The notes beneath the pieces are model-generated. The model saw only the letters and a list, made by a program, of their open reading frames with translations. It was not told the DNA's origin and did no database searches. The position numbers and the translations under genes were made by a program. From positions 1-64,000 of IMG/VR virus record IMGVR_UViG_3300022074_000019: a DNA stretch of 64,000 bases, one strand, 5' to 3'. Source of the stretch: a virus. This document shows positions 11,623-24,755 of the stretch, piece by piece. Positions within the stretch are counted from its first letter, which is position 1, and each line of letters starts with the position of its first letter.

Positions 11623-12282
11623 ATGAATTTTATTGCTGCAACTGTTGAACTCACCTTACACCTCGCAGATCAAATCAACGCTTATGGGCTTGACTATCGC
11701 GGCGCTACTGCTGTTGTGCCCGGTGGCAGTGGTAATGCAGAGGTGCGTCTTCGGGTGCTCTGTTACGACCGGCCCGGAGCAAAACTCACCGCCTTTGAAT
11801 CCTGGAAGCCAGGCACAAGGGCGTTGATCACAGGGAATTTGGTGTTTAGTGACGACACTACTAAACCTCTTGATCTGATTATTACTACTCTCGAAACTAA
11901 TGTTCCTCAAGACATGTACTGCAATCAGGTTGTTTTAGGCAATGCGTTCTTCGGATCTGATGAAATCAAAGAACGAAAGAATGGTCAAATTGCCGTAAAG
12001 ATTGGCAGTACGCTTGATAACTCTGATGTCACTACTTGGCTATATCTTGAAACCCATGAAACTCGCAAAAAGAAACTCTCTGAAAGAATCCGCAAAGGAC
12101 GCGCTCTTTGTGTTCAAGGTTACATCCGTGAATACCGCAAAGATGATTCTGACAGCCCTTACCGCGCCATCGTTGCTAGCGATTTCAGCACTAGAAAAGA
12201 AAAAGCACGCTCTAATAAGAACCCACAAACGAACGGTTCAGCAGCGGGCTACGCAGAAGTTGATCCAACGCCGGATTATTGA
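11623..12282 (+). CDS. Tandem OB-fold single-stranded DNA-binding-like protein
   Basis: Two SSB-like units (KPGTRALITGNL; RKGRALCVQGYIREY) and an acidic/aromatic C-terminus. Confidence 0.6.
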   Translation: MNFIAATVELTLHLADQINAYGLDYRGATAVVPGGSGNAEVRLRVLCYDRPGAKLTAFESWKPGTRALITGNLVFSDDTTKPLDLIITTLETNVPQDMYCNQVVLGNAFFGSDEIKERKNGQIAVKIGSTLDNSDVTTWLYLETHETRKKKLSERIRKGRALCVQGYIREYRKDDSDSPYRAIVASDFSTRKEKARSNKNPQTNGSAAGYAEVDPTPDY

Positions 12283-12346
12283 GCGCCAGTCTCATATTGA
12301 TCTAAACAAACCTGGGTGGACAGCACCTATTTATTCAGCCACTGAT

Positions 12347-12362
12347 GCCGGTTAACACCGGC
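12347..12362 (+). repeat. Hairpin repeat copy 4 (terminator-like)
   Basis: GCCGGTTAACACCGGC followed by TTTTTT. Confidence 0.9.
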
Positions 12363-12436
12363 TTTTTTGTTTGTGTGTTTAGGTCACATTAATAGAAATA
12401 TATTCTTATATTGTGAGAGTCAATGAATAATAGATA

Positions 12437-13180
12437 ATGACTCTCCAAGTCTTGCCTCCTGAGTTAACGGAGGCACCAAAAGATAAGATTGAAACTAAAG
12501 AGCCTCAACCCTATTGGAAACCTAGTTCACTAAAGGATGGAGAAAGCGAAGAATTCAGATTACTCGGATGTTACGAAACTGGACACGCCATTGTTGGATG
12601 GCAATATGCATCCGAAGTTCGCGATACGAAAACTGGTGAGCTTCGTTTTAATGGTTATGTGGTTACTAGGAGTCATCCTGGACAGCCAGAAGACCTTGCC
12701 CGAGAAACCGACTGGGCCAAACCCGATCGACCCAAGATTGACGGAACCTACGTCAAGCCCCGCAGATTTCTTGCGTGGGTTGCCACTTCCGCAGCAAGAG
12801 GTCGCATGGAAGTCCTATTCATTGAGCAGAAATCTATCCGTGATCAGCTGACTGAAATCCTCCAAGAGATTGAAGACTACACCTGGACTAAAGATGGACT
12901 TGCTAATTTCTCGATTAAAATATCACGCAAGGGAAGCGGCCTTGAAACGACGTATTCGATCCTACCTAAGGTACGTAAAGTGCCGGCAAAAATTGCTGCC
13001 GAATGGGAATCGAACAGAGATAGTATATGGCTCCCCAACTTCTTTGAAGGAAAGGATCCTTTTGATGGACGTCAAACTGATGAGAAAGGTTTGCCGGCTG
13101 GTGGCGTAGATAAACGCGGAGCTACTGTCATTCCAACTACTACTGAAAAACCTGTCGAAGAAGACAACACTGAATTTTAA
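12437..13180 (+). CDS. Putative gp32-like ssDNA-binding protein
   Basis: LKDGESEEFRLL, IKISRKGSGLETTYSILP and an acidic tail ending in F. Confidence 0.5.
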   Translation: MTLQVLPPELTEAPKDKIETKEPQPYWKPSSLKDGESEEFRLLGCYETGHAIVGWQYASEVRDTKTGELRFNGYVVTRSHPGQPEDLARETDWAKPDRPKIDGTYVKPRRFLAWVATSAARGRMEVLFIEQKSIRDQLTEILQEIEDYTWTKDGLANFSIKISRKGSGLETTYSILPKVRKVPAKIAAEWESNRDSIWLPNFFEGKDPFDGRQTDEKGLPAGGVDKRGATVIPTTTEKPVEEDNTEF

Positions 13181-13182
13181 TT

Positions 13183-13533
13183 ATGTCTAACGCACTCGAA
13201 AATCTGCCACCTGAAATGCAAGCACGTCTTGCACAAATTATGGCTGGACAAGCACCTGCTGAATCACCTCACCAAGCTGCTATCCAACAACCTGCACCTG
13301 AACCATCTCCACCGGTAAAGGTTCCGTCCCTGATGGATCATGTAATTGCACTCCGTCAGGAAGTAGCTGCTCTTCGTAGCCAGGTTGATGCCCAATCCAA
13401 TGTTGTTGATGCAGTCGGCCAAGCCGTAGGAACTCTCTATCAGATGTTTCAACCATCAGCCACAGCTTCAGATCAGGGCTCAACGTTTGGTCAGAACTTT
13501 CAACAACAACAAGTAGATGCTTCTGACTTTTGA
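13183..13533 (+). CDS. Gln/Pro-rich coiled-coil hypothetical protein
   Basis: Closely coupled to the upstream gene. Confidence 0.7.
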   Translation: MSNALENLPPEMQARLAQIMAGQAPAESPHQAAIQQPAPEPSPPVKVPSLMDHVIALRQEVAALRSQVDAQSNVVDAVGQAVGTLYQMFQPSATASDQGSTFGQNFQQQQVDASDF

Positions 13534-13560
13534 TTACCCTAATTTTACTGTGATCATCTA

Positions 13561-13594
13561 GAGCGTCTCTGAATTTTTCAGTGGCGCTTTTTTA
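13561..13594 (+). terminator. Intrinsic terminator
   Basis: GAGCGTC...GGCGCTT interrupted stem followed by a T tract. Confidence 0.6.
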
Positions 13595-13609
13595 AAACAA
13601 ATATATATC

Positions 13610-14362
13610 ATGACTGACAAACCTTTTAGGATTCAGACTGCTGCTGGACACCGCAAGTATCTTTGCTCAGGCCTTTACCTGCCTTCTGTTACAACGGTCC
13701 TGTCCGGCACTGAATCGGAAAAATCTAAAGCAGGCCTTCGTGCCTGGAACGAAAAAAATCCTGGTGCTATGGAAGCTGCTGCCATTAGAGGCACTGCCAT
13801 TCACCAATGTTGTGAAAACCATATTCGTGGTCTTCCTATTGACTGCCCAGATGACTACATGCCTTTTTGGAATGGTATGAGTCAATACCTTGATTGGTTT
13901 GATGAGATCTATTGGTCTGAGCGTCCACTTCGCCCTGACTGGAACGATCTGCGTAGTGACGACCGTGAAGTTGCCTATGTCTGGTCTACTGAGCACAAAT
14001 ACGCTGGGTGTCCCGATTTGATTGGCACCATTGGCGGTTTGAACGTTATTGCTGACTTCAAGACTTCTAACGGTCCTTACTGCTCATCCTCGCCTGAGCG
14101 GGGTGATCGTGCTGGCTATGGTGGCTGGCGCAAATTCCAAAAATGCGCACAGCAGTTAGGAGCTTATCGTTACGCGCTTAACGAACGTGTTGGCTTTAAA
14201 TGTGATGTTGCCTTGATTATTGTCACCACAGAAGAGGCTACTCAAGGTATATTTATTGACGGAGATCAACTCGATCTCTACGAATCTCGCTTTTTGAAGC
14301 GGGCGAAAATGTTCCACGATATGCACCCAGATACAGATGATCAAGTTGCGGATATCAGTTAA
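13610..14362 (+). CDS. PD-(D/E)XK exonuclease (RecB/Cas4-like superfamily)
   Basis: LPSVTTVL, RGTAIH, YAGCPDL, IADFKTS and QQLGAY. Confidence 0.85.
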   Translation: MTDKPFRIQTAAGHRKYLCSGLYLPSVTTVLSGTESEKSKAGLRAWNEKNPGAMEAAAIRGTAIHQCCENHIRGLPIDCPDDYMPFWNGMSQYLDWFDEIYWSERPLRPDWNDLRSDDREVAYVWSTEHKYAGCPDLIGTIGGLNVIADFKTSNGPYCSSSPERGDRAGYGGWRKFQKCAQQLGAYRYALNERVGFKCDVALIIVTTEEATQGIFIDGDQLDLYESRFLKRAKMFHDMHPDTDDQVADIS

Positions 14363-16556
14363 TAAGAGTTGTAAAAACAAAGAGAGTCAGCCTGCATATG
14401 ACTGGCTAAACATCAATGAGAGTCTGGAGTGGCTTCAAGGGTGGGTTTCAGCTGGTTACGGCTGGTGTGCTACTCATTTTGTTGACAGGCATCGTCGTCA
14501 AGACAATGCTGTTGGTAGCAATGTTGTAGTCATTGACTTCGATGGCGACACCACGCTGGGCCGTTTCTGGCAGATGCAGACTGCACGTGACTGGTGTGTG
14601 GCTACTTACACATCATCTAGTCACACAGAGCAGTGCCATCGCTTCCGTGCCATCTTTCCTCTTGCTATCGACTTGCAGACAGCAGCTCAGCACAAAGGTG
14701 CTTATTGGCTTGTCGTCAATCGACTGCTTGCTGACTTAGGTCTCGAATCTCTCGAAGACAATTGCGGACAAAAGCGTGAGCGTCTCTGGTATGGCAACAC
14801 CAATGCCGAGTGGCAGCTCAATCCAGGTGCGGAAGTTCCTGACTTTTTGCTTAATGATATTGACTATGAAGAAGCGGTTGATTTTGTCTCTGCTGAGGTC
14901 ACTGATCAAGATGTAGATCGCTGTCAGTGGCTTCTGCGTAACTTCCTGACGCCTTCTGAAGATGGCGAGTATGAATCACGTTACGTGCCAGTTATGGCCG
15001 CCTGCGCAGCCGTAGGACAGCCTCTCTTTGATGACTGGGTTGATTGGGTATTGCGTGGTCATCATGGTGAAAAACGTGAGAACATTTTGCCATTCAAATG
15101 GCGTGGTCTCGGTAACCAATCTGGACCTGCTAAGTTATACTCGCTTGCTAAAAAACAAGACAGTAACTGGACATCACAGTTACCACCTGAACTTAAGTTC
15201 GGTGCCGTTGGATCTGCTGTCGGCTATACAGAGTTTGATCAGCTTCCCAACTTTGATGACGTAATCCATACTATCGAGGTAAAAGTGGAACCCGAATTTG
15301 AACCAATCCCTGATGCATCTCAGGCTGTTAAAAAGACTAGAGGTCGTCCTAAGAAATCAAGCAGTGATGCAGCTAAAGAACGTGAGAGTGATGTCAAGCA
15401 AGTTCTTGAGATTCTTTCTCTGCTTCGAAAAAATGAGTTGACTGGTGCTATCGAATACACAGATGGCACTGGCAAAACTGTTGAGCTTCAGGGCAATGAC
15501 CTTGATCTCATGACTACCAAGCTCGCTTGTGAGCATGGGGTCTTTATCCCTGAGATGCGTATCAAGTCTGCTATCCAGTATGCCGCTCTCAAGCACAAGT
15601 ATTGTCCAATTCGACGTTATCTTGATACTTGTTCAGCGCAAGCTATCCCACACAAAGATTGGGATCGTATTGGCGAAATTTTTCTTGGCAACAAGAACAA
15701 GCTGGCAACTCTTGCCATGCAACGCATGATGATTGGCGCCGTTGCGCGTGCTTACAACCCTGGATGCTCTATGTCTTGGCTGCCCATTCTCGTAGGCGCA
15801 CAAGGTGTAGGTAAATCTCAATTTAGTAGAAGCCTTGTTCCTGAGAAGCTTTTCGCTGAGGTGTCTACTCCCCTCGACACTCTCATGAAAGAGCAGTATC
15901 GACTTCACGTTGCTTGGCTACTTGAGCTTCCTGAGATTGATCACTTCTTTCAGTCTCGCAACATCGAGAACTTTAAGAACTTGATTACTACTCGTTGCGA
16001 TGAGGTTCGTCGTCCCTATGCATCACTCCCTGAGCGTTTGCTCCGCAGGTTTGTGATGATCGGCACGACCAATCGTAATCAGTTTTTGGTTGACAGTACT
16101 GGTAACCGTCGTTTTGTTCCTCTTGAAATTGGAGCTAACTTTCTCATTCCTTGGGAGCAGCTGCAAGAAGAGCGAGACATGCTGTGGGCTTCTGCTATTC
16201 AGGCTTACCGCAATGGCGAATCCTATGAGTTCAATAGTGGTGAAATTGCTCAGATCTCTGAGTACATTCAAGAGTTTGGTGATCCTGATCCTTGGATGGA
16301 AAAGATCAGTAATTACGTGGCATTGAAGCCTGAAGTTACTGCTGCTGACGTTCTAACACAAGCACTGGATCTTGATCCACGTGCGCAAGGTAGACGTGAA
16401 GCACGTCGTGTTGCTGATGTTCTCCAAACTCTTGGATGGCGTCGACTTAATACCTCACGAAAAGATGCAGTTACTGGTAAAACTAAGTCAGTCCGACTTT
16501 GGGTTCGTCCCAAGGATGATCCTCTTACTGAAGATCACATCCTCAAAGACTTCTGA
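14337..16556 (+). CDS. AEP primase with PriCT-like domain, fused to a VirE/VapE-like helicase
   Basis: VIDFDG, YTSSSH and HRFRAIFPL (AEP); GAQGVGKS Walker A, IGTTN and TGNRRF (VirE). Confidence 0.88.
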   Translation: MIKLRISVNKSCKNKESQPAYDWLNINESLEWLQGWVSAGYGWCATHFVDRHRRQDNAVGSNVVVIDFDGDTTLGRFWQMQTARDWCVATYTSSSHTEQCHRFRAIFPLAIDLQTAAQHKGAYWLVVNRLLADLGLESLEDNCGQKRERLWYGNTNAEWQLNPGAEVPDFLLNDIDYEEAVDFVSAEVTDQDVDRCQWLLRNFLTPSEDGEYESRYVPVMAACAAVGQPLFDDWVDWVLRGHHGEKRENILPFKWRGLGNQSGPAKLYSLAKKQDSNWTSQLPPELKFGAVGSAVGYTEFDQLPNFDDVIHTIEVKVEPEFEPIPDASQAVKKTRGRPKKSSSDAAKERESDVKQVLEILSLLRKNELTGAIEYTDGTGKTVELQGNDLDLMTTKLACEHGVFIPEMRIKSAIQYAALKHKYCPIRRYLDTCSAQAIPHKDWDRIGEIFLGNKNKLATLAMQRMMIGAVARAYNPGCSMSWLPILVGAQGVGKSQFSRSLVPEKLFAEVSTPLDTLMKEQYRLHVAWLLELPEIDHFFQSRNIENFKNLITTRCDEVRRPYASLPERLLRRFVMIGTTNRNQFLVDSTGNRRFVPLEIGANFLIPWEQLQEERDMLWASAIQAYRNGESYEFNSGEIAQISEYIQEFGDPDPWMEKISNYVALKPEVTAADVLTQALDLDPRAQGRREARRVADVLQTLGWRRLNTSRKDAVTGKTKSVRLWVRPKDDPLTEDHILKDF

Positions 16557-16579
16557 TAATTCTACTTTTTAACTTTAAA

Positions 16580-16816
16580 ATGAAAACATCTGATATCCAT
16601 ATCGGACTGCGTGTCCGTGTGCTGTCTAATGACAACACCGCTCTTGTAGTTAGTAAGCCTGAGTATTACACCTCACGTTCTAAGCTTGTTCGTATAAAGT
16701 ATGAGAACAGCACACGCTATGAATACACTACTAATCATTTGATTGAAGCTTTGCCTGTTGATGAACAATATCCAGAGCTTGGTGGTTCTTATGTAAAACC
16801 TGAAGGTGATTTCTAA
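16580..16816 (+). CDS. Small beta-barrel (SH3/KOW-like) hypothetical protein
   Basis: IHIGLRVRV...ALVV...VRIKY pattern. Confidence 0.6.
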   Translation: MKTSDIHIGLRVRVLSNDNTALVVSKPEYYTSRSKLVRIKYENSTRYEYTTNHLIEALPVDEQYPELGGSYVKPEGDF

Positions 16817-16817
16817 T

Positions 16818-17627
16818 ATGCCTGAATCGCAGCCCAGCAAAAAACGTGGCGGTCATGCCTACGGTCGTCGTAATCAGCAGATGTCAAATACTGCCGAAGA
16901 AGGAGAACTTTGCATCTACAGCGGCCACTCTCTTGGTCGGTTTTCTTCTCATTCGATGCGTTACGACAGCCATCAAGCTTGTACTCGTTGCGTTGCCTCA
17001 GCACGGGAAGGAATGCTTTCCTTTGATGTAGACCGTTTACTCAAGAAATATCGATCAAAAGCTCTTAAGTTTTGGAGTCAAGTTGATATTGGTTCCCCTG
17101 ATGAATGCTGGAACTGGAATGGAGTTATTAATCCCAGAACTAAGCAAGCTCAGTTTGCTTGGCGTCGGCCAGGAATCTCATCATCTACCCAGCATCATCC
17201 TCAACGTGTTGCTATGTGGTTGACTTGGGGTGATCTTGGGTTTACAGGCGTTAAGACCACTTGCGGCAATAAATATTGCTGTAATCCTTTCCATCTCATT
17301 CCTCAAAACATTGGTGTTTTTGTCGATAATGATACTTATTTAGAGTCATTCGAGCTTGCTTGTCAGATCCATACACTTAAGCAGCAAATTGCTGAGTATG
17401 TCATCGAAGAAGCAATCAAGGAAGAAGCTAAAAAAGCAGAAAAACTAGATGCTGAATTACGTAATGGAATGCTGCTTAATCCCGACACACAATTTGGTGA
17501 TCGGTTTGAAGCTTTAGTCACTGATTTCTTGTCTGGAGCTCACATCTCTCAGCTTAATCCAGAAGATTCCAGCATGTTTAAGTTACCTACTGATAATGAT
17601 GCTGAAAACCCCACAGATAACATTTAA
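16818..17627 (+). CDS. HNH/Zn-finger endonuclease homologue, apparently lacking the catalytic His
   Basis: FWSQVD...DECWNWNG, HHPQRVAM and VKTTCGNKYCCNPFHL. Confidence 0.6.
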   Translation: MPESQPSKKRGGHAYGRRNQQMSNTAEEGELCIYSGHSLGRFSSHSMRYDSHQACTRCVASAREGMLSFDVDRLLKKYRSKALKFWSQVDIGSPDECWNWNGVINPRTKQAQFAWRRPGISSSTQHHPQRVAMWLTWGDLGFTGVKTTCGNKYCCNPFHLIPQNIGVFVDNDTYLESFELACQIHTLKQQIAEYVIEEAIKEEAKKAEKLDAELRNGMLLNPDTQFGDRFEALVTDFLSGAHISQLNPEDSSMFKLPTDNDAENPTDNI

Positions 17628-17659
17628 TTTATTTACACTTTTACAAGAGTCATTTAGTT

Positions 17660-18088
17660 ATGTCAAGACGAACAGACTTACTTCAGCATCTTATTCAGTC
17701 CGACAAGTTCGGCGAAGAGAAGACTCAAGAGCAAAAGTTTCTTGCTGCTACTGCTGAATTGATCCTCACTGATCTAATCAATATTGCATCTAATGGTGTA
17801 CTAGCGAAAGGTGCAGGCAGTTTAATTATCAATCTTCAAAACGATTCAACCACTTATATGAGTGGTTATGACATTGAACAGGATATTTACACTGCTGAGA
17901 AGGCAGAAGACGAAGATACCATCAAGTTTCTTCGATCTCTGCTTGAAGAAATTAACGAAAATGACTGGTTTAACAATGTATTAATTACTTTGATCAGTGA
18001 TGCTGGAACAAGAACATTTAGTGTCGAAGCAGGAGGGAGCCAAGAAAGCCTCCGAACGATCGCAGAAGAATTTACAGGACAAGCTTAA
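17660..18088 (+). CDS. Acidic hypothetical protein
   Basis: ATG ORF. Confidence 0.7.
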   Translation: MSRRTDLLQHLIQSDKFGEEKTQEQKFLAATAELILTDLINIASNGVLAKGAGSLIINLQNDSTTYMSGYDIEQDIYTAEKAEDEDTIKFLRSLLEEINENDWFNNVLITLISDAGTRTFSVEAGGSQESLRTIAEEFTGQA

Positions 18089-18668
18089 AGTAGCTGGACT
18101 TAAACTTCCGCTGTATCCAACACCTCAAATCATTGAGCGTGCACGGACTGTTATGGGTGGTATTGACTACGATCCTACTTCTGATCCTGTTCAGCAAGTT
18201 CTTGTTGATGCAACGTCAGTTCCTTCAGTCAATACTAACCCTCTGCAAGAGCACTGGCATGGCAATGTGTTTGTTTCTCCCAAAGGGGCAGTGCGTACCA
18301 CTCGAATTTGGTTGAACAAAACGATTGATGAGTATCGAAATCATTACATCAATAGTTTTGTATTTTTCACGAGTGCCTCAGAAATCATGAGAGCTGCTCC
18401 TGCAATCTTGGATTATCCATTTTGCATTCCTTTCAAACGTATTAAGCAGCTGCGGGCGACACCTAGTGGATTTGAACCCGTATGCCCGTCTACTTGGAAT
18501 ATTCTTGTGTATGGCCCGCCAGTTGATGCAGCCATTACCTCTATCGATAAAGTTTCACTATTCCACAACACTTTCCGTGATATTGGCCGTGTCTGCTTTA
18601 ACGAGTTTGCTGGTGACAGCTGGACACGTGATCTTGAGTATTACACTGAAAAGCGTGGTGAAGTTTAA
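17997..18668 (+). CDS. Phage N6-adenine methyltransferase homologue with degenerate motif IV
   Basis: TPQIIERARTVMGGIDYDPTS...WHGNVFVSPKG (NPPY expected); start uncertain. Confidence 0.7.
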   Translation: MMLEQEHLVSKQEGAKKASERSQKNLQDKLKVAGLKLPLYPTPQIIERARTVMGGIDYDPTSDPVQQVLVDATSVPSVNTNPLQEHWHGNVFVSPKGAVRTTRIWLNKTIDEYRNHYINSFVFFTSASEIMRAAPAILDYPFCIPFKRIKQLRATPSGFEPVCPSTWNILVYGPPVDAAITSIDKVSLFHNTFRDIGRVCFNEFAGDSWTRDLEYYTEKRGEV

Positions 18669-19087
18669 TGCATAAGCAAATATCTCCTTCTGCTTTTATT
18701 ACGCTTCCATCTGGTGACGAAGTCTTCCCTTCACGTCTTATCCATCGTGATGGAACAATTATGTGGAAGCATGCATTGCAAGCTGGTGATAAGCATTATG
18801 TGCCTACATCTCTCGCTCATGAAGCACACATAATCAAGACTGCAGCACGTCTTGAAGAATTGAATGCATGGGTATCCCAAAATCTTGAGCCATGGGATTG
18901 TTTCTTGCCAAAATTTTGGTATGACCCTCGTAGTATTCATAAACCAACAGCATCTGGATATGCTTGCGAGTTTCAGCACACTTCTCTCAGTACCAGCGCT
19001 GTGCTTGAAATGCTTGCACCCCATGTGCAAGATCATGAAACTCTTGTCTTGCTAAATAACAGTAACTTGTATTTCTCTAGGTGTTGA
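18668..19087 (+). CDS. Degenerate peptidase M15A-like protein
   Basis: HIIKTAARLEEL...WYDP...GYACEF aligns by eye to M15A but lacks SxH, D and HxH. Confidence 0.45.
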   Translation: MHKQISPSAFITLPSGDEVFPSRLIHRDGTIMWKHALQAGDKHYVPTSLAHEAHIIKTAARLEELNAWVSQNLEPWDCFLPKFWYDPRSIHKPTASGYACEFQHTSLSTSAVLEMLAPHVQDHETLVLLNNSNLYFSRC

Positions 19088-19091
19088 TAAG

Positions 19092-19107
19092 GCCGGTTAA
19101 CACCGGC
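19092..19107 (+). repeat. Hairpin repeat copy 5
   Basis: GCCGGTTAACACCGGC with no T tract. Confidence 0.9.
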
Positions 19108-19147
19108 TGCAGTTTGGGTAAATTAAGTCTATACTTTTAACAGAACA

Positions 19148-19459
19148 ATGTATGATATGGACTACGAAAAATTTAAAAAGGATCTAGAAGAATTTGAATC
19201 CTGGGATGACAGCAAAATCATTAGTATGTATAACAAATCTGACGCTGTAAATAGTCCTTCGCATTACACACGTGGATCTACAGAAGCGATCGACATTATT
19301 GAGGAAGCCATTCAAGACGCACCGTCACCTGTAGAAGGAATGCTTCAAGGACAAGTACTTAAGTATCTCTTGCGGCTTTGGCTCAAAGAAAACTCTGTTC
19401 AAGACGCCAAGAAAGCTAAGTGGTATCTCGACCGATTGATTTCTAAGCTAGAAGACTAA
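19148..19459 (+). CDS. DUF3310 (SaV / T7 gp1.7-like) protein
   Basis: DAVNSPSHY, EAIDII, KYLLR and DAKKAKWYL. Confidence 0.88.
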   Translation: MYDMDYEKFKKDLEEFESWDDSKIISMYNKSDAVNSPSHYTRGSTEAIDIIEEAIQDAPSPVEGMLQGQVLKYLLRLWLKENSVQDAKKAKWYLDRLISKLED

Positions 19460-20043
19460 TGCCTGCACCTAAGCACGATCCAACTTTCATTCATGATAAA
19501 GAGCGTTACTTTATCAATTTAGCCAAGCAGGTTGAAACCGGATCTAATCATCCCATCGCTCCTGGTGGATGTGTAATTGTGCGCGATCGAGAGATCGTTG
19601 GTGATGGCCGCAGTATTCTCGCAGATTGCAAGGTTGAAATAGACTGTGTAACCTATGCAATAGCCACTGCTTGCAAGCGTGGCACACCTATCACAGGTGC
19701 CGTTATATATTCCACTCGTTATCCTTTTTCTGCCTCTGTCTTTCAGTTATACCTGATGGGCATTCGCAAAATTATTGTGTTGGCTCACGAGTGGGAGCCT
19801 TACTACAAAGACGAATATCGACGCAGTGCTCGACTAGCACGCGAACTATCTATATCTATTGAACCATTTTTTGAAAACGAAGATGAACGTTTCTCAACCA
19901 ACAACCAAGCCCCCCGTTTCGACGACAAAGAAGAGCAATTCCAGAACAAAGACCTCTACACGTACAGCCCGGCGGAACGCGATGATTTCGACGCTGAACA
20001 ATATCAACAACAAATCGATGACTCAAACCACTCTACTCTTTGA
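19459..20043 (+). CDS. dCMP deaminase-fold protein lacking the Zn and catalytic residues
   Basis: YFINLA...GCVIVRD...GAVIYST...GIRKII. HAE reads DCV and PCxxC reads PFSAS. Confidence 0.75.
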   Translation: MPAPKHDPTFIHDKERYFINLAKQVETGSNHPIAPGGCVIVRDREIVGDGRSILADCKVEIDCVTYAIATACKRGTPITGAVIYSTRYPFSASVFQLYLMGIRKIIVLAHEWEPYYKDEYRRSARLARELSISIEPFFENEDERFSTNNQAPRFDDKEEQFQNKDLYTYSPAERDDFDAEQYQQQIDDSNHSTL

Positions 20044-20548
20044 CCTTGAATCCACTGGTCTGCTTCGTCGTGGCTCCAGTATCCACTGCATCGTTGCCCG
20101 AGATCTCAACAACTCCTCAGATGCGCTCGTATGGGATGTACCTCGTAACAACCTCGATCAAGGTGTTGAACAGCTACGTCGAGCCGATGTGCTTGTTGGG
20201 CATAACATCGCTGGCTACGACATCCCCCTGATTCAAGAGGGATACGACTTTGATTTCCAAGGCGAAGTTATCGACACCCTTGTACTTTCTCGTTTGTTCT
20301 ATCCACATATCCAAGAGCGTGACTTCGAACGTCGTCCTATTGGCATGCCTCAGAAACTTTACGGCCGTCATAGTTTGGAGGCCTGGGGTTATCGCCTCAA
20401 ATGCTTCAAAGGCGACTTTGGTAAGCATGATGGTGCTTGGGATACTTACACACCCGAAATGCTTGACTATTGCATTCAAGATACTGAGGTAACTGTCAAG
20501 CTCTACGAACTTATGCTTCGACGTATGCAAGATTATGCAACCACGTAA
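20018..20548 (+). CDS. Stand-alone 3'-5' exonuclease domain of a T7-type PolA
   Basis: FDLES (ExoI), GHNIAGYDIP (ExoII), HSLEAWGYRL and YCIQDT (ExoIII). Confidence 0.9.
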   Translation: MTQTTLLFDLESTGLLRRGSSIHCIVARDLNNSSDALVWDVPRNNLDQGVEQLRRADVLVGHNIAGYDIPLIQEGYDFDFQGEVIDTLVLSRLFYPHIQERDFERRPIGMPQKLYGRHSLEAWGYRLKCFKGDFGKHDGAWDTYTPEMLDYCIQDTEVTVKLYELMLRRMQDYATT

Positions 20549-20616
20549 ATCCCCATTAAAAGTTAAACCTGATTATCCTAAGGATAATAAATCGACTAAC
20601 AATAAAGAAAAAACTA

Positions 20617-20871
20617 ATGAGCAAGACCGAGACTACTTTGAAAGCTACAGATCCTTTGACCGTTGACGAGGTCAAGGCTGCTAGTGACATCTTCTTTCCA
20701 CTTTTTACTGAGGTTGATGGCCGCATGCCTGACGGAGCTTCTGTTGAAGATACTTTGAAGGTTATGGAAGCTGTAGCCAAACTCGCTCATAAACAGCGTG
20801 CTAAAGCTAAAGAAGAAAAGATTAAAGAAAAATTTGGTTTCAACAAAATTGCTGAGGATGCTGATGATTGA
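20617..20871 (+). CDS. Hypothetical protein lying between the two PolA halves
   Basis: 84-aa ATG ORF whose stop overlaps the polymerase start. Confidence 0.7.
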   Translation: MSKTETTLKATDPLTVDEVKAASDIFFPLFTEVDGRMPDGASVEDTLKVMEAVAKLAHKQRAKAKEEKIKEKFGFNKIAEDADD

Positions 20872-22165
20872 TTGCGTCAAACTTGAAATGGATATGGCAC
20901 TGCTGATGACACAGCAGGAGGCCTCTGGATTCCGCTTTGACATGGACGCCGCAGAGCGTGTGCGTGATGAGCTCACAAATGAAATGCAGACACTGCTAGG
21001 CATCATCAAATCTCGCTACCCTTTTGTTCCTGGCAAAGTATTTACACCAAAGCGTGCAAACAAAACTAAAGGTTATGTGGCTGGTGCACCCTTTACCAAG
21101 CTAGAGGAGTTCAACCCAACCAGCCGTCAGAACATTGCCTGGGCTTTGCAAACGTTCCGCAAGGCTCGCTTCACCAAGCTCACCGATAGTGGTAAGCCGA
21201 AGGTCGATGAAGCTGTGCTGAGCGAGGTACGTGATAAAGCACTGCAAGATGGCAACACCCTGCTGCACGAAGAGTGTGAGATGTTTATCCGTCTACTTAC
21301 TCTGCAGAAGTGGCTGGGACAGCTTTCTGAGGGTGCGAACTCTTGGTTCAATACGATTGAGCAGGACGGCTGCATCCATCACAGCTGCACACTTGCTACA
21401 CAAACGGGGCGTAACGCCCACCGTGGTCCCAACCTCGGCAATGTCGTAAGTGCACCTTGGGCACGTCAACTGTTTATCCCTCACCCCGGTCACGTCATGG
21501 TAGGCGCTGACCTTGAAGGCTTAGAGCTTCGAGCGCTTGGGCACTACCTCAGCAGGTTCGATGACAATGCCTTCGCTGACGTTGTTATCAACGGCGATAT
21601 TCACCAGCAGAACGCTGACCGTGTGGGTTGCACTCGTAAAGAAGTAAAAACCATTACCTACGCTTTCATCTATGGCGCAGGTGATGCAAAGCTCGGACAC
21701 AGCTTGTGTCCTGAGCTGCCTGATATTGAGAAAAAACAACTTGGCACTGAGCTTCGTCGCAAGTTCCTTGCCGCTATTCCTGGATTGGAGCCATTAATTG
21801 ATGCAGTCAAACAAAAAGTTCGCAATAGCGGTCGTCTTAGGGGGCTTGATGGGCGTCCTGTATTCTGTCGGGCTGAACATGCCTCACTCAACTACCTATT
21901 GCAATCCGCTGGAGCAGTCATCTCCAAGCGTTGGGTGGTTTTCGGACAACAACTGCTAGACGAAGCAGGGCTTGTCTACGATCGCGATTACACCCGTTGT
22001 GCATATGTGCACGATGAAGTTCAACTGTCTGTTATACCCCAACAAGTTGATACTGTTAAACAGCTTCTAGAAAATGCTGCTCCACTTGCTGGACAGTATT
22101 ACAACTTTCGAGTTCCTATTGCAGCTTCTGCAGACAGTGGCGCGTCATGGCAGGATACACATTGA
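20864..22165 (+). CDS. polA: DNA polymerase family A, polymerase domain (T7-like, Tyr at the E. coli 762 position)
   Basis: TQTGR, ADLEGLELR (motif A), RKEVKTITYAFIYG (motif B) and VHDE (motif C). GAGG SD precedes ATG 20864. Confidence 0.95.
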   Translation: MIDCVKLEMDMALLMTQQEASGFRFDMDAAERVRDELTNEMQTLLGIIKSRYPFVPGKVFTPKRANKTKGYVAGAPFTKLEEFNPTSRQNIAWALQTFRKARFTKLTDSGKPKVDEAVLSEVRDKALQDGNTLLHEECEMFIRLLTLQKWLGQLSEGANSWFNTIEQDGCIHHSCTLATQTGRNAHRGPNLGNVVSAPWARQLFIPHPGHVMVGADLEGLELRALGHYLSRFDDNAFADVVINGDIHQQNADRVGCTRKEVKTITYAFIYGAGDAKLGHSLCPELPDIEKKQLGTELRRKFLAAIPGLEPLIDAVKQKVRNSGRLRGLDGRPVFCRAEHASLNYLLQSAGAVISKRWVVFGQQLLDEAGLVYDRDYTRCAYVHDEVQLSVIPQQVDTVKQLLENAAPLAGQYYNFRVPIAASADSGASWQDTH

Positions 22166-24079: not shown

Positions 24080-24409
24080 TCACATCATCATGAGACCATC
24101 GTTGTCGATGTCATCGTCTTCCCAACCTGGGTCCATAATATCGGTGGGCATATTGTCATCTTCTGACTGCATCTTCAGCAGTTCAATGAATGTTTCTTCT
24201 GAAAGAATTTCAGGTAATCCTTCTTGCTTCTCTTCAATTTTGAAAACAACTCCGTTCTGAAGAAGCACATTCTGGACGCCGTTCTTCTGCTGCATGCGGG
24301 ACTTGAGAAGTTTAACTGCAGTTCGCTCTAGTTCGTGCCGGCTCATACGAGATACTTCATATCGCGCACGCTGTAGTGCAAACCGTTGTTCTATCGTCAA
24401 ATCCTTCAT
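24080..24409 (-). CDS. nblA: NblA-like phycobilisome degradation adaptor with an acidic extension
   Basis: LTIEQRF...VSRMSRHEL...LLKSRMQQKN matches the NblA pattern LSLEQxF...MSxEQ. Confidence 0.6.
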   Translation of the reverse strand: MKDLTIEQRFALQRARYEVSRMSRHELERTAVKLLKSRMQQKNGVQNVLLQNGVVFKIEEKQEGLPEILSEETFIELLKMQSEDDNMPTDIMDPGWEDDDIDNDGLMMM

Positions 24410-24755
24410 TCTCTAAATCCTCTGCAACAATACGTTCGTTGGCGATCCACTCTTCGATCAATTCTTTGGCAATAGTGTTGTAAAACTCTTGCCGTTGATA
24501 CCACACTAGCCAATTTTCACTACCTTTGTCGTGATTACAACTTCGGCAGCATGGAAGTAAGTTAGATCGAAGGCTACTACCCCCTGCGGATTTGGGTTTT
24601 ATGTGATCAAGAGTGGTGGCTCTATTCTCACGGCAGTAAGCACAAAGACCGCCAAAAGCATATTTAAGTTCTTGACGGAATTGACGCTTGGCGGAGCCTT
24701 TATTGAGGCACTGGAGAGAGAACATAAGTTCCTTCCAGTCTTCTGCGTAACCCAT
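24357..24755 (-). CDS. HNH endonuclease
   Basis: CAYC, TLDHIKPKSAGG and NLLPCCRSCNHDKG. Confidence 0.9.
   Translation of the reverse strand: MGYAEDWKELMFSLQCLNKGSAKRQFRQELKYAFGGLCAYCRENRATTLDHIKPKSAGGSSLRSNLLPCCRSCNHDKGSENWLVWYQRQEFYNTIAKELIEEWIANERIVAEDLENEGFDDRTTVCTTACAI

Follow-up and report, generated by a model that had tools for sequence, protein, structure and literature searches.

Why would a phage keep, between its primase and its DNA polymerase, four genes that resemble enzymes and lack the residues with which such enzymes work? The question was raised by a reading of a viral DNA stretch of 64,000 nucleotides (the window), in which four intact ORFs were described as a cassette of dead enzyme homologues: an HNH/Zn-finger nuclease with VKTTCGN in place of VxHxCDN (A), a Dam-like methyltransferase with SPKG in place of NPPY (B), an M15A-peptidase-like protein lacking SxH, D and HxH (C, the weakest of the four calls) and a dCMP deaminase fold with DCV in place of HAE and PFSAS in place of PCxxC (D). 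All four were found as open frames on the plus strand, and two further conserved genes, x142 and a DUF3310 gene, share the stretch that the original prediction had presented as four ORFs. The locus reads as follows:

14337..16556, plus strand: primase-helicase (VapE-like; PF05272, 3.6e-51), upstream flank, C-terminus ...DF
16580..16816, plus strand: p78, small conserved ORF, fold without assignment, acidic C-terminus with terminal Phe, found in 80 loci
16818..17627, plus strand: A, His-Me finger zinc scaffold (HNH_3/zf-His_Me_endon type) without the catalytic His
17660..18088, plus strand: x142, conserved ORF, fold without assignment, its final ~30 codons overlapping the start of B
17997..18668, plus strand: B, Dam-like (PF05869-related) methyltransferase fold, motif I kept, motif IV replaced by (S/A)PKG
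18668..19087, plus strand: C, M15A/LAS (hedgehog/DD-peptidase) fold, predicted, without the zinc triad
19092..19107, plus strand: GC-rich 6-bp hairpin GCCGGT-TAAC-ACCGGC directly 3' of the C stop codon, read from the sequence
19148..19459, plus strand: DUF3310 protein (PF11753, 1.9e-15), outside the set of four
19459..20043, plus strand: D, dCMP-deaminase-derived CDA fold without the His, Glu, Cys, Cys set
20018..22165, plus strand: split family-A DNA polymerase (exonuclease gene, 84-aa ORF, polymerase gene), downstream flank

The start of the split polymerase at 20018 agrees with the sequence. The source phage belongs to the sister lineage of S-EIV1, an uncultured marine one reported by Flores-Uribe et al. 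2019, and A to D are core genes of its replication and nucleotide module. The lineage is one of cyanophages, abundant and of global distribution. The genes are closely packed: one base separates the p78 stop from the A start, the stop codon of B and the start codon of C overlap in the window (TAATG), with C starting at most a few bases from the end of B in all loci checked, and the codons of DUF3310 and D overlap here as well. B and x142 overlap by ~90 nt, a segment with low variability at all three codon positions.

A is the clearest derivative of a known enzyme group. No Pfam model was found for it at E <= 1, and it matches PHROG HNH/endonuclease families (E 8e-9 to 7e-6) as well as endonucleases of the HNH_3/zf-His_Me_endon group, PF13392/PF05551, from phages StAB, Yvonnetastic and HCTV-5 (hhalign 98.5%). 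It derives from free-standing phage HNH_3 homing endonucleases. Aligned with the active proteins, V-R-H-T-C-D-N becomes V-K-T-T-C-G-N; the general-base position holds Thr, Ser or Pro in 76/76 orthologues and Arg in S-EIV1, and His in none of the 76 sequences. Where active proteins have the metal-site segment LGTxxDN, A has PQx(I/V)GVFVDxx, and the position of the metal-binding Asn/His, with which the core helix begins, varies (N/K/H/R/G/Y). A retains the CWxW motif and the Cys/Cys/His zinc ligands, with C101, C153, C158 and H163 invariant; its N-terminal region is rich in Cys and His and specific to the lineage, and its C-terminal tail is acidic. Within a longer frame opening with GTG, Met5 never varies, which makes the ATG at 16818 the probable start. 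Active HNH_3-type proteins, e.g., gp46 of Corynebacterium phage StAB, which lies between polymerase and helicase, have the CWxW...CxNxxCxNPxHL architecture and the replication-module location in common with A. However, they carry VRHTCDN and LGTxxDN and are sporadic mobile genes, whereas A, with VKTTCGN and no conserved Asn for the metal, is fixed as a core gene. The Smad MH1 domain offers a precedent, as a His-Me finger that no longer catalyses but still binds DNA (PMC5714182). Both it and A are I-PpoI/HNH-type zinc-stabilised fingers without the catalytic His, but Smad MH1 is eukaryotic and has no sequence kinship to A, for which DNA binding is only predicted.

For B, which has no direct Pfam hit, homology to phage proteins passing PF05869 extends over the whole domain (hhalign 99.4%, E 3e-21), and its structural model (pLDDT 67) matches the N6-adenine methylases CAPAM, M.TaqI, EcoDam and T4 Dam with Z of 8-9. 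Motif I (IDxDPTSDP) is nearly invariant. The motif IV position reads (S/A)PKG in 69/73 orthologues, the remaining four having AAKG or ASKG; a (D/N/S)PP(Y/F/W) motif occurs in none of the 73, both the aromatic residue and the second Pro being absent. B differs from PF05869 methylases in motif IV and in its N-terminal helix, which is dual-coded with x142. METTL14 and DNMT3L are inactive methylase partners, and METTL14, like B, keeps the fold without a working motif IV. In contrast to these two, B has no active paralogue in its genome to pair with: a tblastn search of the 78-kb phage genome found neither a paralogue or active counterpart of any of A to D, nor a Dcd.

The assignment of C to M15A is a predicted one, made at fold level from predicted structure only. 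Its AlphaFold2 model (pLDDT 92) matches the Streptomyces zinc D-Ala-D-Ala peptidase 1lbu with Z 10.3 and rmsd 2.7 over 107 residues (VIA), followed by hedgehog N-domains and M15 endolysins, with six of the eight next hits of LAS fold. BFVD matches are named Peptidase M15A, with TM up to 0.67 to phage M15A proteins. No M15 family (PF08291 or related) was recovered with any of 37 members at E <= 10, and the PDB profile search found nothing. The 37-sequence alignment holds no conserved H...D...H set; SxHxxGxAxD and the C-terminal HxH/His are absent, with only Gly97 and Ala/Ser99 fitting, as mapped by motifs and aligned ranges and not by residue-level superposition. The C-terminal strand reads LYFxRC. 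The remote homologues P0060 and P0062 have not retained the near-invariant His35, His54, His104 and His119. The family is restricted to this lineage, with 64 clusters out of 1.8 billion representatives. The fold predicted for C is that of Peptidase M15A, taken as 1lbu, phage Peptidase_M15A proteins and the hedgehog N-domain, and the hedgehog N-domain is a precedent for an M15A-type fold used as a ligand. Unlike Peptidase M15A, C lacks the zinc motif and sequence-profile similarity and sits in a replication module, not in a lysis or tail module.

D is derived from dCMP deaminases. It scores 24.6 bits against PF00383 (cut-off 25), a label that is precomputed for most of its relatives, and PDB profile searches returned RibD (E 1.8e-5) and dCMP deaminase (E 7.8e-5); it is closest to RibD and to the dCMP deaminases of phages and bacteria. 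Compared with the dCMP deaminases of phages MaeS and SP-10, HAE is replaced by D-C-V and PCxxC by P-F-x-x-S. Among 56 orthologues, the first motif is D-C-(V/I/L) in 51 and a D-P, D-A or H-C variant in five; His stands at the first ligand position in one and the catalytic Glu in none. The second motif reads P-(F/Y)-x-x-(S/A/G/P), with no Cys at the ligand positions in any of the 56. In Tad3 the catalytic Glu alone is missing, and the zinc ligands remain. D shares the CDA core with Tad3/ADAT3 and with the dCMP deaminases of MaeS, SP-10 and T4 (Cd). It differs from Tad3 in the loss of all zinc ligands, and from dCMP deaminases in a deleted insert and an added acidic C-terminal extension of ~70 aa, the last 25 residues of which carry a net charge of about -6.5. 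Inactive deaminase domains such as Tad3 serve as non-catalytic partners (PMC3239186).

The fold readings of A, B and D were thus borne out by profile searches and alignment with active relatives, and that of C at the level of predicted structure, no sequence profile having recovered it. Judged from the motifs, the ancestral reactions, i.e., DNA cleavage (A), adenine-N6 methylation (B), zinc peptidase activity (C) and cytosine deamination (D), appear to be lost. Other chemistry could still take place without the canonical residues.

In at least 80 related viral contigs, A to D are uninterrupted and syntenic, and each is full length in 56-76 distinct orthologues. No stop-disrupted copies of A to D were found in 80 viral and 13 other loci. 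The dN/dS ratios are 0.10 (A), 0.10 (B), 0.22 (C) and 0.14 (D), with 0.19 for p78; synonymous sites are near saturation (pS about 0.75), and pN is 0.15-0.33. Because orthologues are full length, dN/dS is 0.10-0.22 and the substituted motifs are nearly fixed across relatives, selected exaptation rather than decay, as had been suggested from the sequence, is supported for A to D.

In S-EIV1, A and B have homologues that likewise lack the motifs; these occupy distinct loci, with ~10 kb between them when counted across the origin of the circular record, and C and D are absent. Further, DUF3310 lies on the opposite strand in most relatives. Therefore, A to D look like independent domestications and not like one mobile cassette; what brings them together appears to be their shared membership in the replication and nucleotide module. 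The status of the originally proposed cassette as a single unit is weakened.

We therefore propose, with moderate confidence, that A to D are independently domesticated, catalytically dead proteins kept by purifying selection as non-catalytic subunits. By analogy with the precedents above, they probably work as binding or regulatory proteins now. A would act as a DNA-binding factor on its retained zinc scaffold. B, with the cofactor-binding half of the methylase kept (motif I and the residues invariant throughout its family), may bind SAM/SAH or DNA without methylating adenine. It probably partners C, as suggested by the start codon of C overlapping the stop codon of B; S-EIV1 has B and not C, so this partnership cannot be ancestral. 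D could be what remains of a dCMP deaminase, serving in nucleotide binding or as a scaffold and interacting through its acidic tail.

Additional clues come from the C-termini. A ends in acidic residues followed by F or Y in 52/76 orthologues, commonly ...NPTEEF, while the window's own A ends ...TDNI, not in Phe or Tyr. The primase-helicase ends xDF in 75/79 relatives and EF in two more; p78 ends ...DF, with a terminal F or Y in 65/76 orthologues; an SSB-like protein ends ...PDY, p247 ...EF and p116 ...D(Y/F). PMC12339929, citing Ghosh et al. 2009 and Marintcheva et al. 2009, describes the C-terminal Phe of T7 gp2.5 as needed for its work with the polymerase. By this analogy, the acidic Phe/Tyr tails point to T7-style replisome docking: the tail would tether A to a T7-like replisome, as seems to hold also for the SSB-like protein, the primase-helicase and three neighbours. 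Such tails suggest a T7-like docking logic for the little-studied split-polymerase replisome. A replisome co-factor role, as had been suggested for the four proteins, is thereby favoured for A only, and indirectly.

A wider reading, which we offer as a rather doubtful extension, is that a replisome accessory set was partly built from disabled enzymes, in which A and its neighbours dock on the split PolA while the coupled B-C pair and D serve as sensors or shields. These would sense or shield SAM/SAH, dC nucleotides or DNA, and could thus couple phage DNA synthesis to the metabolic state of the host or conceal DNA and nucleotides of the phage from enzymes of the host. If true, this would be a pseudoenzyme hub without a described phage counterpart.

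An unlikely explanation, though one with points in its favour, is that at least one of A to D is a neo-functionalised enzyme that is still catalytic via non-canonical residues, e.g., with B passing a group from SAM on to an acceptor other than adenine, DNA cleavage by A through a Tyr nucleophile or zinc-free nucleotide chemistry by D. B keeps motif I and all residues invariant across B and its PF05869-positive relatives (G54, I56, D59, S62, V70, A72, W87, C143, R148, Y172, F189, G197). It has an invariant Lys96-Gly97 where motif IV would stand and, at 83% mean column identity, is conserved as tightly as an enzyme. Motif IV is not invariant even among its PF05869-positive relatives; the nearest ones show unusual forms (NHPF, NAPG, FPPN, NPPC), and relatives in Vibrio, Alteromonas and cyanobacterial phages are widely kept despite this variation. 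The cofactor site of B appears intact, and its clade may carry out some other, real reaction. PacI-type His-Me nucleases work with an omega-loop Tyr (PMC5714182), and the omega-loop Tyr157 of A is near-invariant, but two of the 76 orthologues have Leu there and A also lacks the conserved metal-binding Asn. D has invariant polar residues (His31, Arg42, Glu60, Asp62, His110, Glu119), yet it is missing all three zinc ligands, the proton-shuttle Glu and the dCMP-deaminase insert, and C has no metal-site-like residue set surviving in its remote homologues.

We consider it quite improbable that, as was also suggested from the sequence, the dead folds are counter-defence decoys that mimic or poison host enzymes. 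D would co-assemble with a nucleotide-depleting host deaminase or sequester its substrate, A would block a host nuclease site, and B would soak up SAM or occupy methylase or restriction target sites. The phage encodes no active partner for B or D, so an enzyme partner would be a host protein; the tail of D is strongly acidic, and an abundant, global lineage implies diverse hosts. However, anti-defence genes are usually variable, expressed early and patchy in distribution, whereas A to D are core, syntenic and slowly evolving genes inside a replication operon.

Very unlikely, too, is one obligate hetero-complex, in which A to D would form a single pseudoenzyme machine with x142, p78 and DUF3310, a pseudoenzyme complex of the four having been among the roles originally suggested. 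The tight same-strand packing with its stop/start overlaps (B/C and DUF3310/D, p78 and A being one base apart) and the co-conservation of all genes in every relative speak for such a machine. The separate A and B loci of S-EIV1 and its lack of C and D argue against it, as do the inverted DUF3310 gene, the hairpin 3' of C and the widely differing rates (62% mean column identity for C against 83% for B). Finally, neutral decay of pseudogenes on their way to loss, for which nothing speaks but the missing motifs, is refuted by frames intact in all relatives, low dN/dS at saturated synonymous sites and conserved replacement motifs and is practically impossible; short metatranscriptome contigs from two studies covering parts of A, x142/B and D add a weak hint of expression, DNA carry-over being possible.

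Pseudoenzymes are well studied in eukaryotes and hardly catalogued in phages, where here they account for four core genes, small and well-conserved proteins amenable to direct ligand and partner tests. The B and D families each comprise hundreds of 90%-identity protein clusters from marine metagenomes. A public pipeline names D a deoxycytidylate deaminase, and DNA methylase is the name given to relatives of B; conclusions about metabolism or epigenetics based on these names would be wrong for this lineage.

Fold matches and motif alignments fully confirmed the original prediction that the locus between primase and DNA polymerase encodes four enzyme homologues lacking their catalytic residues (ORFs A to D), including ORF C, which had been its weakest call.

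Genes of the locus, with coordinates in the window
14337-16556, + strand: VapE-type primase-helicase (upstream flank)
16580-16816, + strand: p78, a conserved ORF
16818-17627, + strand: A, nuclease fold
17660-18088, + strand: x142, a conserved ORF
17997-18668, + strand: B, Dam-like methylase fold
18668-19087, + strand: C, M15A peptidase fold
19148-19459, + strand: DUF3310 protein
19459-20043, + strand: D, dCMP deaminase fold
from about 20018, + strand: polymerase genes (downstream flank)

Residues 76-166 of A matched PHROG endonuclease and HNH families (E 8e-9 to 7e-6), and profile-profile comparison with HNH_3/zf-His_Me_endon endonucleases gave 98.5% probability. The comparison set comprised the endonucleases of Corynebacterium phage StAB, Gordonia phage Yvonnetastic and halovirus HCTV-5. 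Active endonucleases in this alignment read V-R-H-T-C-D-N...C-V-N-P-x-H-L...L-G-T-x-x-D-N, and the aligned A reads V-K-T-T-C-G-N-K-Y-C-C-N-P-F-H-L-I-P-Q-x-x-G-V-F-V-D. The zinc ligands and an upstream CWxW motif of A are invariant. Thr, Ser or Pro replaces the general-base His in 76/76 orthologues, and the position of the metal-binding Asn is variable among them. The A homologue of the freshwater Synechococcus phage S-EIV1 (AHV82135, downstream of the primase) also lacks the His (V-S-R-T-C-N-N). The N-terminal 85 residues are Cys/His-rich and specific to A; the C-terminal part is helical and strongly acidic. The sole PDB profile match, plant NRC2a, covered only this C-terminal helical region as a coiled-coil and was judged spurious. 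Likewise, a resemblance of the N-terminal region to the sequence upstream of StAB gp46 was rejected as Arg-rich noise, the Cys and His not being common to both. A canonical HNH gene lies elsewhere in the window (24357-24755, - strand), and a weak HNH-like match to the StAB endonuclease was observed beyond it, at about 76153-76293 of the whole genome (tblastn, E 0.04).

Pfam scans of B and of all 37 aligned members returned nothing relevant, and a PDB profile search with B gave no match. Searching with tblastn led from B to annotated methylases of Alteromonas phage PT11-V22, Pseudoalteromonas phage KB12-38, Dolichospermum phage Dfl-JY23 and Vibrio phages. These relatives exceed the PF05869 threshold, and the B family aligned with the PF05869-positive relatives at 99.4% in hhalign (E 3e-21, 154 columns). 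The AF2 model of B, of moderate quality (pLDDT 67), matched N6-adenine methylases almost exclusively (CAPAM, M.TaqI, ErmE, EcoDam, T4 Dam and type I M subunits; Z 8-9). B retains every residue that is invariant across itself and the PF05869-positive relatives, including the motif I loop IDxDPTSDP. At the site of (D/N/S)PP(Y/F/W), 69 of the 73 orthologues carry (S/A)PKG and the remaining 4 AAKG or ASKG. The nearest relatives are also unusual here, with NHPF in Vibrio and Alteromonas phages, NAPG in the Dolichospermum phage, FPPN in S-EIV1 and NPPC in a spring virome. Therefore, judging from the aligned motifs, the B clade as a whole has evidently left canonical motif IV, B furthest.

No sequence method assigned C to a family (Pfam, also over all 37 aligned members, PHROG and PDB profile search), and a profile search run exhaustively over 1.8 billion representatives recovered only 64 clusters, almost all from this lineage. 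The AF2 model of C was confident (pLDDT 92, pTM 0.85). Foldseek placed hedgehog N-terminal domains on top, and the best match of an independent VIA search was 1lbu (Z 10.3, rmsd 2.7, 107 residues), the Streptomyces zinc D-Ala-D-Ala carboxypeptidase that is the type enzyme of M15A, followed by hedgehog domains, VldE, Ply500, LysB4, DacB, VanXY, MepA and VanY. Matches in BFVD were phage proteins called Peptidase M15A. Mapping by motifs and aligned ranges showed that C lacks the zinc motifs SxHxxGxAxD and HxH, with Gly97 and Ala/Ser99 as sole remnants. The near-invariant His residues of the C family are not retained in two remote homologues (P0060 and P0062); for their genomic context, a viral scan returned nothing and one metagenome scan only contigs of the same lineage.

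D scored 24.6 bits against Pfam PF00383 (cut-off 25), and a PDB profile search returned RibD and dCMP deaminases (E 2e-5 to 8e-5). Microcystis phage MaeS and Bacillus phage SP-10 provided dCMP deaminases for alignment: their T-I-H-A-E-M-N-A-L corresponds to E-I-D-C-V-T-Y-A-I in D, and their T-H-x-P-C-P-x-C to T-R-Y-P-F-S-A-S. The catalytic Glu is missing from all 56 D orthologues, as is each of the two Cys. D has also lost the dCMP-deaminase insert by deletion and gained a mostly acidic C-terminal extension of about 70 residues. A public pipeline labels D and its relatives (P0200, P0202, P0208 and others) as deoxycytidylate deaminase; since every zinc ligand and the catalytic Glu are missing from the D family, marine viromes are likely to be systematically misannotated in this respect.

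The original prediction had further proposed exaptation rather than decay, and this was supported. Scanning IMG/VR with the primase as query yielded 190 related stretches, 80 of which were kept. The gene order is the same in these loci, with A, B and C intact in all 80 and D in 74 (some contigs without D visibly stop within or ahead of its gene), and in 13 more contigs from other collections; no disrupted copy of A-D was seen in either set. Among less diverged pairs, dN/dS (pairwise Nei-Gojobori) was 0.10 for A, 0.10 for B, 0.22 for C and 0.14 for D; over all pairs the median pS was about 0.75 and pN 0.15-0.33. Neutral decay is excluded by these low ratios, the lack of disrupted copies and the near fixation of the replacement motifs across relatives. 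PF05869 and PF00383 searches of the phage's own genome gave no match; since D itself went undetected, their sensitivity was too low. With active relatives as tblastn queries, the 78-kb genome yielded no paralogue or active counterpart of A-D and no Dcd; a model of inactive partner plus active paralogue is therefore not applicable within the phage. For A, B and D, the broader searches for homologues covered the best 120 near relatives listed.

Six proteins of the replication module (window 11623-17627) end in acidic residues plus Phe/Tyr, a feature conserved in relatives.

C-terminal endings, with their positions in the window
12282: SSB-like protein, ...PDY
13180: p247, ...EF
13533: p116, ...D(Y/F)
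16556: primase-helicase, ...DF in 75/79, EF in two more
16816: p78, F or Y last in 65/76
17627: A, F or Y last in 52/76, often ...NPTEEF (the window's own A differs, ending ...TDNI)

B, C and D have no aromatic ending, and the tail of D is very acidic. The six tails resemble the polymerase-docking tails of T7 gp2.5 and gp4. The T7 helicase-primase gp4 requires its acidic tail and terminal Phe to work with the polymerase. The same requirement is described for the T7 SSB gp2.5 in papers cited in PMC12339929. The analogy suggests that A is tethered to the replisome.

We moderately favor a reading in which four enzyme folds were domesticated independently, each as a non-catalytic protein with a binding or regulatory role in the replication/nucleotide module; A would bind DNA while tethered to the replisome, and B and C would form a coupled pair. 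Inactive folds have precedents in Smad MH1 (His-Me finger) and Tad3 (deaminase), as well as in METTL14 and the hedgehog N-domain. Such precedents are known for each fold singly; our literature search found no account of a comparable pseudoenzyme set in a phage. Non-canonical catalysis by one or more of A-D seems unlikely, and a role as counter-defence decoys is rather improbable.

That A-D form one four-protein machine is improbable. The single cassette of the original prediction is weakened: the B-C junction, with stop and start codons overlapping or abutting, is kept everywhere and is the only coupling that is. Against a single cassette, A and B are apart in S-EIV1, DUF3310 is inverted in most relatives and a hairpin follows C. 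In S-EIV1, A lies near the primase; about 10 kb, including the origin of the circular record, separates it from B, which has DUF3310 nearby. C and D were not detectable in this phage. At 75277-76490 of the S-EIV1 record (L086 30277-31490), the motif-less B homologue directly adjoins an annotated dCTP deaminase (Dcd, dUTPase-type). Dcd is absent from the marine lineage, where the dead dCMP deaminase D lies two genes after B. A link of B to dC-to-dU metabolism is possible.

Between C and D, DUF3310 is on the + strand in the window and a few relatives, and most marine relatives carry it reversed (examples: L093 3683-4003; L100 6571-6795), a local inversion polymorphism within an otherwise collinear operon. 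The GC-rich hairpin (GCCGGT-TAAC-ACCGGC, window 19092-19107) starts five bases 3' of the C stop codon, has no T-run and may divide the operon through processing or attenuation. Upstream, window 17997-18088 is shared in different frames by the end of x142 and the beginning of B, ~30 codons of each. Entropy in this overlap is 0.28/0.37/0.56 at the three codon positions in 73 relatives, compared to about 1.4 at third positions of B outside it. All three positions are thus constrained, which indicates true dual coding or an RNA constraint on top. Fold and family searches with x142 returned no match. Short metatranscriptome contigs from three RNA runs (two studies) span parts of p78/A, x142/B and DUF3310/D; contigs of this kind are unable to demonstrate transcription, DNA carry-over is possible, and their not covering C proves nothing.

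The virus record is 78 kb long and rated 98% complete; the window covers its first 64 kb and encodes psbA, transaldolase, ribonucleotide reductase, ThyX, an ORF resembling an integrase, and a family-A DNA polymerase divided over two genes. The virion structural protein (731 aa, PHROG 20475) is 47% identical to the S-EIV1 counterpart, with no other match among phage records. Flores-Uribe et al. described a lineage of uncultured marine cyanophages with NblA, integrase, split DNA polymerase, class II RNR, talC and psbA, whose nearest relative is S-EIV1 (10.1101/325100); genes A-D are not mentioned there. Gene content and the S-EIV1-like virion protein fit membership of the window phage in this lineage. 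A genome-collection scan with PolA retrieved solely phage contigs mis-binned into MAGs, and not the relic prophage of Synechococcus WH8016 described in 10.1101/325100. Contigs L092-L096 of this phage lineage were binned in MAGs labelled Methanobacteriota, Blastopirellula, Rhodobacteraceae and Rhodospirillales; such placements, which might misdirect the assignment of hosts, probably reflect errors in binning.
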